Positions 9,863 through 15,603 are shown, counted from the first letter of the stretch. The stretch: 64,000 nucleotides of DNA from Thermoplasmatales archaeon (GCA_020350825.1 CP070724.1:1185602-1249601); one strand, 5' to 3'. Notes: generated from the letters alone by a model not told the origin. Translations and numbers: made by a program.

Positions 9863-9902
9863 TTCATTGAAACTGAGACCGACTCGTTAATACCTGCACT
9901 AC

Positions 9903-9918
9903 TTTTTTTTCTTTTTTT
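9903..9918 (+). terminator. Oligo-T archaeal terminator after the lipoprotein gene
   Basis: ttttttttcttttttt about 40 bp after the stop. Confidence 0.5.
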
Positions 9919-10020
9919 AATTCTACGTTGTAATTGGTAATGAAATCAATATAGAATAGAATTAGAAACGATAAAAGGCCTAATTTGTCTGACATTTCTG
10001 GTACTTGTTGCCGCATTTTA

Positions 10021-10103
10021 TTTAAATACTTTACTATGCTGATATTAAGATAACATCTTAGCTAGAACTTTATGTGATATATTTTACCTTTGAATACTTT
10101 CAA
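10021..10103 (+). promoter_or_regulatory. Putative promoter of the PolB2 cassette: TATA box plus two inverted repeats
   Basis: TTTAAATA at 10021; TAAGAT-AAC-ATCTTA 10046-10060; TTGAA-TACT-TTCAA 10090-10103. Confidence 0.4.
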
Positions 10104-10169
10104 TCATCCCTTTATTAGTTTTATTAGAGCAAATATCCTTCTCAATGACCTACATTATTTTATGGGGGA

Positions 10170-10898
10170 ATGATGTTGAAATCTGATGCTATTAAAAGGT
10201 CCTCTCTTGAGCCAAAATCTTTAGCGAAACTTGATATAATTGTTCAATCCGGGATTATCGAATTAGACGCTTTGCTTGGCGGATTCAAAGCAGGCGAGAT
10301 TACATATATCAGTGGTGACAGTAGTCTAATATCTGAGATTCCTAATCAACTTTGTGTCAATACCTATAGAACATTCAACAGTTCAACAATTTATATCGAC
10401 GGCGGGATTTGTGCAGATCCTTACAAAATTGCAAAATATGCCCGCATTATGGAAATCGACCAAGATGATGTACTTAACAATGTTCATATCAGTAGAGCGT
10501 TCACCGTTTATCAACTATCAACATTTATTAATCACTCACTTGAAAAAGAAATCGAAAAGCATGATCCGCGAACTCTTATCATAGGGAAGTTTCCCTCCCT
10601 CTTTCTTGACCGTGATGTTCCTCCCCAGGAATCTCAGATTATTTTAAAGAACATTATCATAAAACTTCATGAGCTCACTACAGAATATAATCTCATCACT
10701 GTTCTCACAAATCTTGATAGTAGACTGTATTCAAATCGAATCAGAAGTATTATTCAATCACATGTTCATGAAACGGTCAAAATGAAATATATTGAACCTT
10801 GCACCTATGTTGACCTCACCAGGAGACAGGAGAGCACTACGATTCTTCACATGGCCGAGGGGCAACTACGATTAGAGCATTTTGGGATGGTGACCTAA
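10170..10898 (+). CDS. Inactive RadA/RecA-fold protein (ImuA-like), PolB2-associated
   Basis: SGIIELDALLGGFKAGEITYISG then degenerate Walker A (GDSSLISE); YIDG, NVHISRAFTVYQL; C-terminal QLRLEHF. Confidence 0.85.
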   Translation: MMLKSDAIKRSSLEPKSLAKLDIIVQSGIIELDALLGGFKAGEITYISGDSSLISEIPNQLCVNTYRTFNSSTIYIDGGICADPYKIAKYARIMEIDQDDVLNNVHISRAFTVYQLSTFINHSLEKEIEKHDPRTLIIGKFPSLFLDRDVPPQESQIILKNIIIKLHELTTEYNLITVLTNLDSRLYSNRIRSIIQSHVHETVKMKYIEPCTYVDLTRRQESTTILHMAEGQLRLEHFGMVT

Positions 10899-11153
10899 AT
10901 GGGTCGTACAGTGCCTTCTTTTAGAATGGTCATCGAGAGTTTCGGTGTTGAATGGAGTGAGTTCAAACGGGCTCTCCGAGACATCGACAAAGAATCCTTT
11001 GAATGTCTTATGAATTACGCTCGCCGTCATGCCGAGGCAGGGACAAACATGCCTAACCCCAATCCGTTTGAACCAATTATTATGTCAATCCTTATTGAAC
11101 ATGAAAAGGAATTAAGGAAGATTCGAGAGAATGCTAAGGGGACACATTCTTGA
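10899..11153 (+). CDS. Small helical PolB2-associated protein (arCOG07300-like)
   Basis: MGRTVPSFR...WSEFKRALR...PFEPIIMSILIE; directly upstream of and overlapping polB2. Confidence 0.85.
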   Translation: MGRTVPSFRMVIESFGVEWSEFKRALRDIDKESFECLMNYARRHAEAGTNMPNPNPFEPIIMSILIEHEKELRKIRENAKGTHS

Positions 11154-13395
11154 CACCTATGTTGACCACAAGAAAAATGTGCTGATAACATGGCTTATTA
11201 ATAACGGAAAGACGAGCAGAATCGAGGACAAGTTTGAACCATCATTTTATGTTTATTCCTCTCAAAACAGTCTCTTCAAACTGGTATCAGATTTACAGGA
11301 TATACCTCAAGTGAAATACCTTAATTTCACTCAGCACAATATCATGTTGGGTTCTGAGAAGAAATATCTTGTTCTTGAAGTCATTCCAAAAACTCTCGCC
11401 TCGTTTAACAGGCTGGCATCAATGATTGATAAATGGGGAAAATATCGAACATATAGATTGTATAATGTAGACATTCGTATTCCAACAAGGTATCTGCAAC
11501 ATAAGAGAGTATTCTGTAATGCTAGAGTAAAATGGGACGGGAAACAGTATATTTTAGAGGATGACCAATGGGCAATAGATTATCTATTTCCTGAGTTCAA
11601 AGAACTTTATTTCAACGTTGAAAAAAAGACAGGATTTCAATCATTAAGTGACCCACTCACAGCAATATATGTTGATGGAAATATTATTGAAGAAGATAAC
11701 GAGACAGATATTTTACTCACTGCGGTAAAACAAATCAGAGAGAAAGACCCAGATATTATCTATACAATTGAGGGAGACAGCTTCTTACTCCCTTACCTGT
11801 ATCACCGAGCTAAAGAATGCAATATCAGTAGAGAGATCAACCTTGGAAGAGATAAAACTCAGAGAAAACGACCTGTAAAACAAGCTAAATCATATTTCAG
11901 TTATGGGCAGATTGTTTATCGACCAGCGTTTTTTACACTCATGGGAAGAGCACATATTGATCGGAATAGTTCGTTTTTATATGGTGAGAGCGGTCTAAGA
12001 GGATTGGTTGATATTTCTAGGTGTGCCAACATCCCATTGCAGCTTCAATCTCGTTTAGGTCCTGGCACTGCTATTAGTCAGATCCAAGTCAATAGAGCAA
12101 TGGATAAAGGGTATCTCATCCCTTGGAAGAAAAACATGCCTGAAAAATGTAAAACAGCTCGGCAGTTGTTAATATCGGATAGAGGCGGTCTTATTCTCAG
12201 TCCTTCTGTGGGACTCCATGACAACGTTGTTGAACTAGATTTTGCATCTCTTTATCCTAATGTTATGTTTCGTTTCAATATCAGCCCTGAGACCATGCTA
12301 TGTAATTGCTGCCTTGATTCACATATTCGTGTTCCTCAACTTGATTATCACATCTGTTATCGTAAAACAGGATTGCTTCCAGAAGTACTTAGACCAATTA
12401 TACACAGAAGATTCTGTTTTAAAGCACGAGCAAAGAACAAGAAATATGATCCTATAATATGTAAGGAAATCCAACAAGCATGGAAATGGATTCTCATTGT
12501 CTGCTTTGGATATACAGGATATAGAAACGCTCGGTTCGGACGTATTGAATGTCATGAGTCAATTACCGCATTTGCGCGTGACATCCTCCTAAAAGCAATT
12601 GAGGTGGCAGAGCAAGCGGGATATCGAGTTCTGCATGGAATCATCGACTCTCTCTGGATAACAACAATTAAGGACGATGTCGATCCCTATAAATTATCGA
12701 GAATGATTAGCAAACGTACTGGGATTCGGATGGATGTTGAAGGACGATATAAGTGGATTGTGTTTCTTCCAAGTAAACAATTTGATGTTGGTGCCTTAAA
12801 CAGATACTATGGATTATTTGACAACGGGGAATTAAAAGTACGAGGTATTGAGCTCCGTCAACGAAATACTCCTGAATTTTTACGGGATGTTCAACAAAAT
12901 ATGTTAAATGTACTGCAAAAAGCAAATAACGCAAAAGAATTTTATGATCTAATTCCTCAAGCTGTTGAGGCGCTACTTGATATTGGAAAACAACTTATTG
13001 ACGGTAAAATAGAATCAAATAAACTTGTTTTTAAAAACCGAATTTCAAGGTATGTTACAGAATACAAAGTGAATAACCTTGTGAAATCAGCATTGCTTCA
13101 ACTACGAGACCTTGATATTCGTGTGGAACCAGGGCAATATGTTCAATATGTTGTTACAGATGAACATTCCAGAAACTATAAGGATCGGGTTTGTGTCATT
13201 GAATCTCTTAATGGAAATGAACAGATTGATATTGATTACTATCTACGACAAATTGCTAAATGTGGGGAGAGCGTCCTTGTCCCTTTTGGTTATACCTTGG
13301 AGAATCTTGAATTTATGCTCCAGCAAAAAAAACGTGGAGAGAATATGTATGGATCCATTTTACAGAGAGTTCGAACTAACCAAACCTGTTTCTAA
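11131..13395 (+). CDS. polB2: Family B DNA polymerase, PolB2 (Dpo2-like, proofreading-deficient)
   Basis: Motif A LDFASLYP, motif B KWILIVCFGYTG, motif C HGIIDS (PolB2-type in place of YGDTDS), KVRGIE; ExoI/II acidic residues lost (YFNVE, GDSFLLPYL). Confidence 0.92.
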   Translation: MLRGHILDTYVDHKKNVLITWLINNGKTSRIEDKFEPSFYVYSSQNSLFKLVSDLQDIPQVKYLNFTQHNIMLGSEKKYLVLEVIPKTLASFNRLASMIDKWGKYRTYRLYNVDIRIPTRYLQHKRVFCNARVKWDGKQYILEDDQWAIDYLFPEFKELYFNVEKKTGFQSLSDPLTAIYVDGNIIEEDNETDILLTAVKQIREKDPDIIYTIEGDSFLLPYLYHRAKECNISREINLGRDKTQRKRPVKQAKSYFSYGQIVYRPAFFTLMGRAHIDRNSSFLYGESGLRGLVDISRCANIPLQLQSRLGPGTAISQIQVNRAMDKGYLIPWKKNMPEKCKTARQLLISDRGGLILSPSVGLHDNVVELDFASLYPNVMFRFNISPETMLCNCCLDSHIRVPQLDYHICYRKTGLLPEVLRPIIHRRFCFKARAKNKKYDPIICKEIQQAWKWILIVCFGYTGYRNARFGRIECHESITAFARDILLKAIEVAEQAGYRVLHGIIDSLWITTIKDDVDPYKLSRMISKRTGIRMDVEGRYKWIVFLPSKQFDVGALNRYYGLFDNGELKVRGIELRQRNTPEFLRDVQQNMLNVLQKANNAKEFYDLIPQAVEALLDIGKQLIDGKIESNKLVFKNRISRYVTEYKVNNLVKSALLQLRDLDIRVEPGQYVQYVVTDEHSRNYKDRVCVIESLNGNEQIDIDYYLRQIAKCGESVLVPFGYTLENLEFMLQQKKRGENMYGSILQRVRTNQTCF

Positions 13396-13786
13396 TTACT
13401 TCATTAATCAAGGCTACAAGGTCATAAAAGAGATAAGAATTGGATATTGCAGAGCAGATCTTGTAGCATTTAATGAGGATAGGGTAATTGCAATTGAAAT
13501 CAAATTGAGCGATAGAAAAAAAGCTATTATCCAAGCTAAAAACTATCAACTTGGTGCTGATTACGTATACCTTGTTTTTCCTCTTATGAAATCCTATTCC
13601 CTTTTAAGAAAATCTGAATATACTCTTCAAAAAGAGGGAATTGGGTTGTTGATTGTTAACGAAATAACCTGTAAAGTAAGTAAGATTATTGATGCAAAAC
13701 CATCTAAAAGAAAATTTGCTTCGATCACTCTAAAGGAAATAAGACGGTCACGAGAAAATATAGCAAATAAGTTCAAGTTTTATTAA
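13349..13786 (+). CDS. PD-(D/E)XK nuclease (MmcB/DUF2161-like)
   Basis: ATG at 13349 overlapping the polB2 end; E...RADLVA...AIEIK...Q...ADYVYLV...GIGLL. Confidence 0.8.
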   Translation: MDPFYREFELTKPVSNYFINQGYKVIKEIRIGYCRADLVAFNEDRVIAIEIKLSDRKKAIIQAKNYQLGADYVYLVFPLMKSYSLLRKSEYTLQKEGIGLLIVNEITCKVSKIIDAKPSKRKFASITLKEIRRSRENIANKFKFY

Positions 13787-13812
13787 GGAGAACATGCTTT
13801 AGGTATTATCAT

Positions 13813-14553
13813 ATGTGTTATAGATATTCGATACATAGCAATGCAATGGTCATCGAATCAAGATTTGATGCTCTATTTCAAAATAATTATGAAAAGAAAT
13901 ATCATGTTGGTGCATTTGATCAAACTCAATTACCTGTTGTTACTAATGAAAATCCAAAACAAATACAATTTTACAAATGGGGGCTTATCCCCTTTTGGGT
14001 AAAAACTTTGAAGCAAGCAGATGAAATAAAAGAGAGAACAGTCAATGCACGGGCAGAAAACATTTATGAAAAACCCGCGTTCCGTCAATCAGCTGAGAAT
14101 AAACACTGTCTTGTAATTGCAGATGGTTTTTTTGAATGGAGATACTTCCAAGGAAGAAACTATCCATACTACATTCGATTAAAATCTCATGAGCCATTTG
14201 CAATAGCAGGACTTTGGGATTGTTGGGTTAATAAAGAAATAGAGAGAAAAATGTATACATATACGATAATTACCTGCCCTGCGAATTCTCTATTGGAAAA
14301 AATCCATAACAAAAAGAAAAGAATGCCAGTAATTCTTCCAAAAGAACTAGAAAAATTCTGGATTGACAATACCTTTACAAAGGAGCAAGCACAAAAAGTT
14401 TTAGTACCATTTGAACAAGATAAAATGGAGGCATATACCATTTCTCGTCTAATTACATCAAAAACTCAAAATCCAAATGTCCCAGAAGTTATGAATCCAT
14501 ATAAATATCCAGAACTAGAAGAATCAAATTTAGCTCAGTCAAGTCTATTCTAA
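13813..14553 (+). CDS. SOS response-associated peptidase (SRAP; YedK/HMCES family), abasic-site protection
   Basis: N-terminal MC, WGLIPFW, NARAE, GFFEW, AGLWD, IH...RMP; Cys/Glu/His intact. Confidence 0.93.
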   Translation: MCYRYSIHSNAMVIESRFDALFQNNYEKKYHVGAFDQTQLPVVTNENPKQIQFYKWGLIPFWVKTLKQADEIKERTVNARAENIYEKPAFRQSAENKHCLVIADGFFEWRYFQGRNYPYYIRLKSHEPFAIAGLWDCWVNKEIERKMYTYTIITCPANSLLEKIHNKKKRMPVILPKELEKFWIDNTFTKEQAQKVLVPFEQDKMEAYTISRLITSKTQNPNVPEVMNPYKYPELEESNLAQSSLF

Positions 14554-15603
14554 TATTTCTACAACTGTTTTTTCCCCTAGATATTCAGAAGCAGTCATTA
14601 CTTTCTTATCCATCTCAACTGCTGTATCCCAGATTTTCTTGGTATGATCCCTGAATTTACTCTCTCTGGTTAGGTGGTGATCATAAATAATAATATCTGC
14701 ATCGATTTCTCTGATTATCCTCGCTGTGTTTTCAATTGTTCTCTCAAGATTAATTCTATTAAGTATGTATCCAAACAAATATGTTGTAGGTCCATCAAGA
14801 AAAAGAATCGAAGGATTTTCCTTGATTATTAAATCAGCATAATCCTCAATCATAGGGCCACTAAGATCTGATGAATGGAATAATTTCTTATTTCCATATT
14901 CAATAATTGTTGCTAAAACCCAACCAACTCCAGCATATTCGATACCATGGAAAAGAGGTTTTGTGAATTTCAATTTGGTATCTCCAAATTTAAAGGTTTT
15001 CCCTTCTGGAAATATGACCTGTATGTTATCAGATTTTATTTCTGGCAATTGTTCATAAGATAGCCATTTCTTAGCGTGTTTCTTAAACCGTTTCCTTCCC
15101 TTACTTAGAACTTCTTTCCTTCTTTCATTATATGATTTAAAATCTTTTGAAGCAGCATGAGGGATGTCATTAAGAGGATCGTGATATTCTGTTTTTTTTT
15201 GTTTTTTCAAAAGTTTCTCTTTTTCATCGATTTCAAATTCCTTGAAAATATCATTTAAAAATTTTTCTCCTCTCTCTCGTTGGTTATTATTAATGTATTC
15301 GTTAGGGTTTTTTGCAAATACAGTTTTCCCCCGATAGACATTGAAATCATCTGGGAAATAATGATCATAATGATAATGAGAGATTGTAATAATGTCTGCT
15401 TTTTGACACGCTTCTTTAATCTTGTTTTCAGCAATTGCAAGCCATTCTGCTTTTTGTTCAGGTAAAGCTGGGAAAGATGGTTGCATTATTGCTACTCCTG
15501 GATCAATAACTATGGTTATATCTGGAGTATTCACAAGAGTAGATGTAGATTTTGCCCCCATTGAATCGAACCAGAGAGGTTGAAATTCAAGATGCTTCTT
15601 CAT
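14545..15603 (-). CDS. Metallo-beta-lactamase-fold hydrolase (UPF0282-like)
   Basis: DSMGAKS, IDPG, SHYHYDH, FHG, HSSD, DHH. Confidence 0.85.
   Translation of the reverse strand: MKKHLEFQPLWFDSMGAKSTSTLVNTPDITIVIDPGVAIMQPSFPALPEQKAEWLAIAENKIKEACQKADIITISHYHYDHYFPDDFNVYRGKTVFAKNPNEYINNNQRERGEKFLNDIFKEFEIDEKEKLLKKQKKTEYHDPLNDIPHAASKDFKSYNERRKEVLSKGRKRFKKHAKKWLSYEQLPEIKSDNIQVIFPEGKTFKFGDTKLKFTKPLFHGIEYAGVGWVLATIIEYGNKKLFHSSDLSGPMIEDYADLIIKENPSILFLDGPTTYLFGYILNRINLERTIENTARIIREIDADIIIYDHHLTRESKFRDHTKKIWDTAVEMDKKVMTASEYLGEKTVVEILE

Follow-up and report, generated by a model that had tools for sequence, protein, structure and literature searches.

The genome of a Thermoplasmatales archaeon (GCA_020350825.1) contains, within the 64,000-nucleotide (nt) stretch analyzed here (CP070724.1:1185602-1249601; hereafter the window, with positions counted from its first letter), a compact block of five genes on the plus strand. 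In gene order, these encode a RecA/Rad51-fold protein without the Walker A lysine (iRadA; 10170-10898, 242 amino acids, aa), the small protein PPB2 (arCOG07300; 10899-11153, 84 aa), the family-B DNA polymerase PolB2 (11131-13395, 754 aa), a PD-(D/E)XK nuclease (13349-13786, 145 aa) and an SRAP protein (13813-14553, 246 aa). The successive junctions are a 0-nt gap, a 23-nt overlap, a 47-nt overlap between the end of PolB2 and the nuclease gene, and a 26-nt gap. A first-pass annotation of the window had proposed five co-directional genes with these coordinates and junctions, and the open reading frame (ORF) listing reproduced both.

As an ORF, the nuclease frame starts at a TTG (13112); we adopted the ATG at 13349, because all aligned orthologues (6/6) begin at the corresponding Met. 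Shine-Dalgarno-like GGAG/GGGGG stretches lie ahead of the gene starts, only two T runs of at least 6 nt occur inside the block, its G+C content is even, and the non-coding DNA ahead of iRadA spans 307 nt. In the 2.32-Mb genome, the operon, the nuclease and SRAP each occur once, and this SRAP is the sole one. Since the same five-gene order recurs in other genera at 55-80% protein identity, the arrangement is not a product of chance. The exact order was found in six complete loci and in one interrupted by a scaffold gap, which are partly the same loci as these recurrences.

The first gene product matches the Pfam Rad51 model (38.6 bits), and the GKT of the Rad51 Walker A motif aligns with I-S in iRadA, replacing Lys by Ile, in agreement with the first-pass description of a RecA-fold protein lacking this residue. 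Its C-terminal GQLRLEHFGMVT has the form QxxLxxF, resembles a PCNA motif and is kept across the iRadA sequences of the close clade defined below; PCNA motifs in iRadA have been described (PMC11791011, section 3.3.3). PPB2 matched no Pfam or NCBIfam family in library scans. Its homologues sit between iRadA and PolB2 at related loci, and the N-terminus of what had been listed as an 84-aa MGRTVPS protein fits the MGRT arm of PPB2, a motif named in PMC11791011. In two close-clade loci (L059 and L070), iRadA, PolB2 and SRAP are present, iRadA and PolB2 lie ~115 nt apart, and PPB2 was not detected. Three split operons contain a conserved Cys-rich ORF of 65-71 aa directly after PPB2 (L067:2139-2345, L073:3126-3338 and L078:3805-3999, plus strand), which shows a C-x2-C ... 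C-x-x-C pattern and a weak Zn-ribbon match; unrelated genes then precede PolB2 and the nuclease.

PolB2 scores 118 bits with the DNA_pol_B model and 463 bits with PRK05761.1-2. Motif A (DFASLYPN) is kept, whereas motif C reads HGIIDS, with the first Asp of DxD replaced. The exonuclease residues are lost, with no conserved DxE in ExoI and Leu in place of the Asp of ExoII, so that the earlier assignment as an exonuclease-dead polymerase holds; altered motif C and a lost exonuclease site are the usual state of PolB2 (PMC11791011, section 3.1). A CNCC...HIC segment, previously taken for a metal-binding insertion, is not one, because its alignment to Pyrococcus abyssi PolB contains only a single one-residue gap. 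Two of its cysteines (C394 and C409) align to Cys residues of the P. abyssi enzyme, and the CxCC...C residues C391, C393, C394 and C409 are invariant in all aligned PolB2 sequences (9/9), one of which is only 32% identical; a metal site at these four cysteines is possible.

Where the PolB2 gene overlaps the nuclease gene, the PolB2 C-terminus (13375-13395 in the window, reading ...RTNQTCF) forms a tail of ~20 aa ending in RT(N/H)QT(C/S)(F/I/L), which is missing in nuclease-less relatives. An open frame of 898 aa in a related genome (G008) was considered as a fusion of PolB2 and nuclease and rejected, as the protein is 755 aa long from its start. Elsewhere in the phylum, other families have a more distant PolB2-like polymerase (~33% identical) with one to three SRAP-like genes next to it (G114:C23:36537-41197, G109:C19, G065:C142, G098:C46, G040:C33, G188:C10 and G352:C3); several of these SRAP-like genes match only positions 73-213 of the SRAP model. 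In a Methanosarcinales metagenome-assembled genome (MAG), a RadC-like JAB protein with HhH motifs (RadC, 95.5 bits; L086:7992-8606, plus strand) is encoded 292 nt behind PolB2 in the same orientation.

The fifth gene product belongs to the SRAP family (PF02586, 192.9 bits against a Pfam cut-off of 27.1). Cys2 is present, and the Glu of DGFFEW and the His of IHN..RMP align with HMCES in an alignment to HMCES and 2f20, as expected for the intact SRAP noted earlier. The protein ends in ...AQSSLF (QSSLF, 14536-14553), and a QxxLF ending is kept in 12 PolB2-linked SRAPs of related loci in addition to the window's own. Both this end and the PolB2 tail may be docking peptides.

The nuclease carries the PD-(D/E)XK residues E28, D37, E50-x-K52 and Q62-xxx-Y66 (alignments A1 and A2), and D37, E50, K52 and Q62 are invariant across 84 relatives. 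With its catalytic residues intact, the protein appears to be an active small endonuclease, and its residues and fold together bear out the earlier label of a restriction-like nuclease. No curated family model in Pfam or NCBIfam reaches its cut-off; only sub-threshold PD-(D/E)XK matches were returned. The best library match, sce7726_fam (NF033832), scores 39.5 bits against a cut-off of 70, which places the nuclease outside the family, and is also found by 23/84 relatives at E up to 0.01; the literature located on sce7726/sce7725 consists of passing annotation mentions. Likewise, the Hjc models (PF01870 / NF040854) give 16.2 bits against a cut-off of 21.1, short of membership. The Pfam MmcB-like model (PF06319) does not match at E up to 0.1, leaving the protein outside that family as well; among the relatives it matches one of six close ones (E 0.024) and four of the wider 84 (best 3.1e-5). 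The close homologues listed are all named "hypothetical protein" or nameless and lack a Pfam domain (120/120), and a profile search retrieved 1919 cluster representatives at E up to 0.001, indicating a sizeable and uncurated family. A search for longer, fused forms of the nuclease found none, which is a negative of little weight.

The AlphaFold model of the nuclease (pLDDT 83.5) has 3dnx as its first-ranked Foldseek match (TM 0.66/0.65, E 1.8e-5, 146 columns), while a search of its profile against PDB sequences returned only 3fov (E 0.46). The structure 3dnx represents DUF1052/PF06319 (PMC3424549), a family that Pfam presently names MmcB-like. Because the best match among solved structures is a member of this family, the comparison with Caulobacter MmcB drawn in the first-pass annotation gains some support: it stands at the level of fold and fails as family membership by sequence. 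Judging from the model, the nuclease looks like MmcB in fold and context and is not a sequence member of the MmcB-like family.

Hjc structures are also found among the fold matches. The nuclease could accordingly be the lineage's Hjc-like Holliday-junction or fork-processing resolvase, acting on stalled or reversed forks and not preparing substrates for PolB2. It is the sole match to the Hjc model in its own genome (PF01870, 15.9 bits, E 0.02, below the cut-off), where the divergent Hjc-like gene present in 47/60 other genomes of the family was undetected. However, its matches to Hjc structures are weak (TM 0.30-0.38), and the nuclease coexists with a separate Hjc-like gene in G007, G128, G143, G172, G225, G334, G396, G405, G420 and G016. 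Since both genes co-occur across the family, there is no complementary pattern between them, and we regard a resolvase role as improbable. The divergent Hjc-like gene was also undetected in two other sampled genomes of the window's genus.

In order to assess how consistently these genes are linked, two surveys were carried out. One covered 401 genomes of the phylum, in which PolB2, the nuclease (by its profile) and SRAP (by its model) were searched for; it included 53 genomes of the window's family, the window's own not being counted. In this family sample, 20 genomes have the nuclease, 33 have PolB2 and 24 have SRAP. The nuclease is found in 19/33 genomes with PolB2 compared to 1/20 without it, and SRAP in 23/33 compared to 1/20; these figures are counts and not a test, as related genomes are not independent. 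In the single exception without PolB2 (G346), 1874 bases were not covered. In 18 of the 19 genomes holding both genes, no more than 120 nt separate the nuclease from PolB2. In the nineteenth (G396), a nuclease-SRAP pair is located on one contig and PolB2 on another; as the genes lie at contig ends, this separation is probably an assembly break.

The other survey scanned GTDB species genomes with a PolB2 alignment and yielded 80 loci, which were then scanned with the profiles. A close clade of 39 loci (L044-L081 and L106; PolB2 at least 51% identical) comprises Thermoplasmatales and other Thermoplasmatota MAGs, e.g. SG8-52-3. The other 41 loci, with 39-47% identity, belong to Methanomassiliicoccales, Methanosarcinales, ANME-1, Halobacteriota and Hydrothermarchaeota and were examined over +/-8 kb. 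Within the close clade, the nuclease adjoins PolB2 in 21/39 loci, five contigs being too short to judge. Its position varies: it is found between PPB2 and PolB2 in L074, inverted in L056 and upstream in G405, and it is still paired with PolB2 in five loci in which PPB2 and PolB2 are separated by 0.8-5.8 kb (L067, L069, L072, L073 and L078). The overlap of ~40 nt with the PolB2 stop is conserved across genera. One locus (L080) was considered as a decayed operon and rejected, because its PolB2 is cut by a scaffold gap of 100 N.

SRAP is present in 18/39 close-clade loci in five different positions: after the nuclease in seven loci, 1.5 kb downstream in one, immediately behind PolB2 in two, and upstream in eight, of which one has it on the same strand and seven have it divergent. 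The window and seven related loci, in which SRAP directly follows the nuclease, as well as the contig of G396 that carries these two genes without PolB2, could point to a nuclease whose partner is SRAP and not PolB2, for instance one that processes the SRAP-DNA crosslink, or the abasic site that SRAP shields, by cutting next to the DNA-protein crosslink. Such an exclusive role does not fit the 13 of 21 nuclease-bearing loci that lack SRAP, 10 of the 18 SRAP loci lack the nuclease in turn, and the G396 arrangement has the likely technical cause given above. We therefore give this possibility a low probability.

Further observations concern the genes next to PolB2. In L067, a 400-aa PDDEXK_1/Cas4-like nuclease (125.5 bits; 10669-11868, minus strand) is encoded convergently, immediately behind the PolB2-nuclease pair. 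Two Hydrothermarchaeota MAGs encode a different small protein whose gene abuts the end of PolB2 or overlaps it (L115:10220-10681 and L093:3527-4042, both plus strand); the two sequences are 40% identical and share E17, D63, E104-x-K106 and Q116 in PD-(D/E)XK order, and one of them has a weak VRR_NUC match (E 0.006). A search of their profile against PDB returned nothing, hhalign against the nuclease alignment A2 gave a probability of 1.8%, and the model (alignment A4, two sequences) has a pLDDT of 46.6, too poor for use of its fold.

The non-coding DNA upstream of iRadA contains a putative promoter. A motif of the form A[AT]TA[CG]TTTC was found upstream of iRadA in 24/29 regions examined, and in 23 aligned sites its distance to a T/A-rich TATA-like element is fixed at 17 nt. 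In the window, the conserved box AATACTTTCA lies at 10093..10102 (plus strand) and is followed after 17 nt by the TATA-like TTTTATTAG (10119..10127, plus strand), a putative promoter element ~45 nt ahead of the ATG. With the window's site left out of its construction, a 48-position matrix assigns this site (10089-10136) 32.7 bits, the best value in the 2.32-Mb genome, whereas the best value in the shuffled genome was 8.9. Where PolB2 and the nuclease form a unit split off from the rest, a second box precedes them, scoring 31.4 bits in L067 and 17.2 bits in L072, and a weaker box lies ~180 nt upstream of three divergent SRAP genes. None of the 41 distant loci has the box before iRadA. In Sulfolobus, the motif termed DDRE (consensus AATAGTTTCRGW...) is bound by Orc1-2 and needed for induction by 4-nitroquinoline 1-oxide (NQO) (PMC6061795), and the window's own genome holds two Orc1/Cdc6 (Cdc6_C) genes.

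Three other sites in this genome exceed 14 bits, giving four composite sites altogether. They are located on contig C1 of the genome (G000) at 1032742 (plus strand, 29.4 bits), 1572536 (minus strand, 20.1 bits) and 746595 (plus strand, 14.3 bits) and precede only small ORFs, namely one of 51 aa, a 79-aa Cys-rich CxxC protein and one of 59 aa. These sites may represent a small damage regulon. At the other end of the block, a T6 run (14568..14573, plus strand) 15 nt past the SRAP stop marks a possible transcript end with putative terminator function. The next gene is convergent (14545-15603, minus strand) and encodes a metallo-beta-lactamase-fold protein.

Based on the observed gene content, catalytic residues, conserved linkage and conserved promoter box, we consider it reasonably probable that the five genes constitute a single DNA-damage-tolerance operon, in which the published PolB2 mutasome and SRAP are joined by a lineage-added PD-(D/E)XK endonuclease under a promoter with a DDRE-like box. 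The five genes would then be co-transcribed and damage-induced, and their products may be in physical contact. In Sulfolobus, PolB2 (Dpo2) is required for damage-induced mutagenesis, and SRAP proteins are known to crosslink to abasic sites in single-stranded DNA. In the proposed mechanism, expression of the five genes, which would be coupled in translation, probably starts from the promoter with the AATACTTTCA box. iRadA, PPB2 and PolB2 would form a translesion "mutasome". PolB2, judged from its Sulfolobus counterpart Dpo2, would serve in it as a proofreading-deficient extender polymerase, probably tethered to PCNA via the C-terminal QxxLxxF of iRadA. SRAP would crosslink to and shield abasic sites in single-stranded DNA. 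The nuclease would most likely incise or trim damaged or stalled DNA, for example at adducts, crosslinks or blocked 3' ends, and thereby provide PolB2 with a usable substrate, as proposed for MmcB with ImuC in Caulobacter. The sequence of events put forward in the first-pass annotation, with shielding by SRAP, gap formation by the nuclease and extension by PolB2, is a hypothesis.

Several points weigh against this interpretation. A search for RNA sequencing runs that contain positions 9900-14700 listed none, and the SRAP gene of L045 is found on the upstream side of the box and hence would not be part of the putative transcript. The matrix scores of the related loci are circular, because the matrix was trained on those loci, and the 9-mer AATACTTTC by itself is not enriched in the genome (60 occurrences compared to ~55 expected). 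The likeness to the Sulfolobus DDRE regulon is one of motif between different phyla, with only four composite sites here and a putative regulator. The likeness to MmcB is one of fold only, and further PD-(D/E)XK folds follow 3dnx closely in the structural search (TM 0.53-0.57). Moreover, the nuclease is absent from 13/34 assessable close-clade loci, each with at least 1.9 kb of room downstream, and is dispensable; neither it nor SRAP was found within 8 kb of PolB2 in the loci of other lineages (0/41), which makes the nuclease lineage-restricted. The linkage of nuclease and SRAP to PolB2 predicted by the first-pass annotation is thus found in the close Thermoplasmatota clade only, and the cassette is no module of archaea in general. 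Other families of the phylum, within which the gene contexts of nuclease relatives were examined, contain 27 matches to the nuclease family. The 18 neighbourhoods examined are varied, and none includes PolB2, iRadA or SRAP (0/18), one PPB2-like ORF being located 3.8 kb away; the wider nuclease family is therefore not dedicated to PolB2.

These contexts, together with the PolB2 operons that manage without the nuclease and its weak similarity to sce7726_fam, MTES_1575 and Hjc, i.e. to restriction-like or resolvase-like proteins, are what would be expected of a passenger. In this case, a housekeeping, restriction-like, defence or selfish gene would have landed behind polB2 in an ancestor and persisted because gene order is inherited, without contributing to lesion bypass. 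Against this stand an adjacency that survives inversion, a move to the other side of PolB2 and splitting of the operon, and the conserved overlap with the PolB2 stop. As this adjacency is retained through rearrangements and the nuclease depends phyletically on PolB2 in the family sample, we consider a mere passenger unlikely and favour the damage-tolerance operon.

If the nuclease indeed prepares substrates, it is a concrete candidate for the missing step upstream of PolB2, with the nearest solved fold being that of the one bacterial nuclease for which a role in supplying a mutasome has been proposed. The AATACTTTCA box represents a short DNA element bearing on Orc1/Cdc6-type damage regulation in Thermoplasmatota, and the SRAP part adds one more example to a published association. 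A broader and distinctly more speculative idea, which we regard as rather doubtful at present, is that PolB2 mutasomes repeatedly recruit a PD-(D/E)XK endonuclease of their own. In archaea, this would combine incision and error-prone extension in one damage-induced machine, allow unhooking plus bypass independently of nucleotide excision repair, and extend a DDRE/Orc1-type switch well beyond Sulfolobales. The forms of such recruitment would be an MmcB-like gene overlapping polB2 in the present family, whose members are sediment Thermoplasmatota, and a VRR-NUC-like small gene abutting polB2 in the two Hydrothermarchaeota MAGs. The resulting pathway would have MmcB/ImuC as its bacterial and FAN1/Pol zeta as its eukaryotic analogue.

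Comparing our results to previous studies, the iRadA-PPB2-PolB2 operon has been described (Makarova et al. 2014, PMC4104785; Timinskas et al. 2025, PMC11791011), including a pentameric model of its products (Makarova et al. 2014 / Timinskas et al. 2025), which agrees with the initial view that the three-gene core was already known. The same view held the operonic addition of nuclease and SRAP to be uncharacterised. For SRAP this does not apply, because SRAP and DUF72 are reported as enriched in the polB2 neighbourhoods of archaea and bacteria (PMC11791011, section 3.1). For the nuclease, which appears in none of the searched texts, it still does: our literature searches, which did not extend to the supplements of PMC11791011, where nuclease clusters may be listed, found no paper linking a PD-(D/E)XK nuclease to PolB2, and "nuclease" occurs in the main texts on the PolB2 operon only within "exonuclease" and "endonuclease" (UVDE). 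This omission may be explained by the neighbour screen of PMC11791011, which used Pfam, as the nuclease has no Pfam family.

The window shares with the PolB2 mutasome the same core genes in the same order, abutting or overlapping, and the same traits: an iRadA without the Walker A Lys and with a C-terminal QxxLxxF, a PPB2 with MGRT, a PolB2 with the first Asp of DxD missing and the exonuclease site inactivated, and an SRAP gene adjoining the operon. In contrast to this system, the window adds a fifth gene, the small PD-(D/E)XK nuclease overlapping the PolB2 stop, and the conserved AATACTTTCA promoter box; no orc1/cdc6 gene is adjacent within the window. Compared to HMCES and E. coli YedK, the SRAP of the window has the same Cys2, Glu and His and thus an ordinary catalytic domain, but it ends in the conserved QxxLF, a putative docking peptide.

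With regard to the Sulfolobus Orc1-2/DDRE (ANTTTC) regulon, the core AATA[C/G]TTTC equals the first nine positions of the consensus AATAGTTTCRGWDTACTCWS (Sun et al. 2018, PMC6061795) and is likewise located in the promoter of the PolB2 operon, which is induced in the DNA damage response in Sulfolobales. The positions differ, as the box described here precedes the TATA-like element by 17 nt and the ATG by ~77 nt, compared to -23 to -55 for the motif in Sulfolobus.

Caulobacter MmcB is described in a review as an SOS-induced PD-(D/E)XK nuclease thought to unhook mitomycin crosslinks for the translesion synthesis (TLS) polymerase ImuC; according to the same source, its family is almost exclusively alphaproteobacterial and its activity has not been demonstrated. 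MmcB with ImuA-ImuB-ImuC/DnaE2 in Caulobacter crescentus and the locus described here are of the same kind, in that a small stand-alone PD-(D/E)XK nuclease is tied to a TLS polymerase, which is damage-inducible in Caulobacter and predicted to be so here, and both polymerase systems are multi-subunit with an inactive RecA-like subunit. They differ in the polymerase, which is of family B here and of family C in Caulobacter, and in the nuclease, which fails the Pfam MmcB-like model. Overall, the locus is the known PolB2 mutasome with SRAP, in a lineage-specific variant that adds a nuclease of MmcB-like fold and a DDRE-like box.

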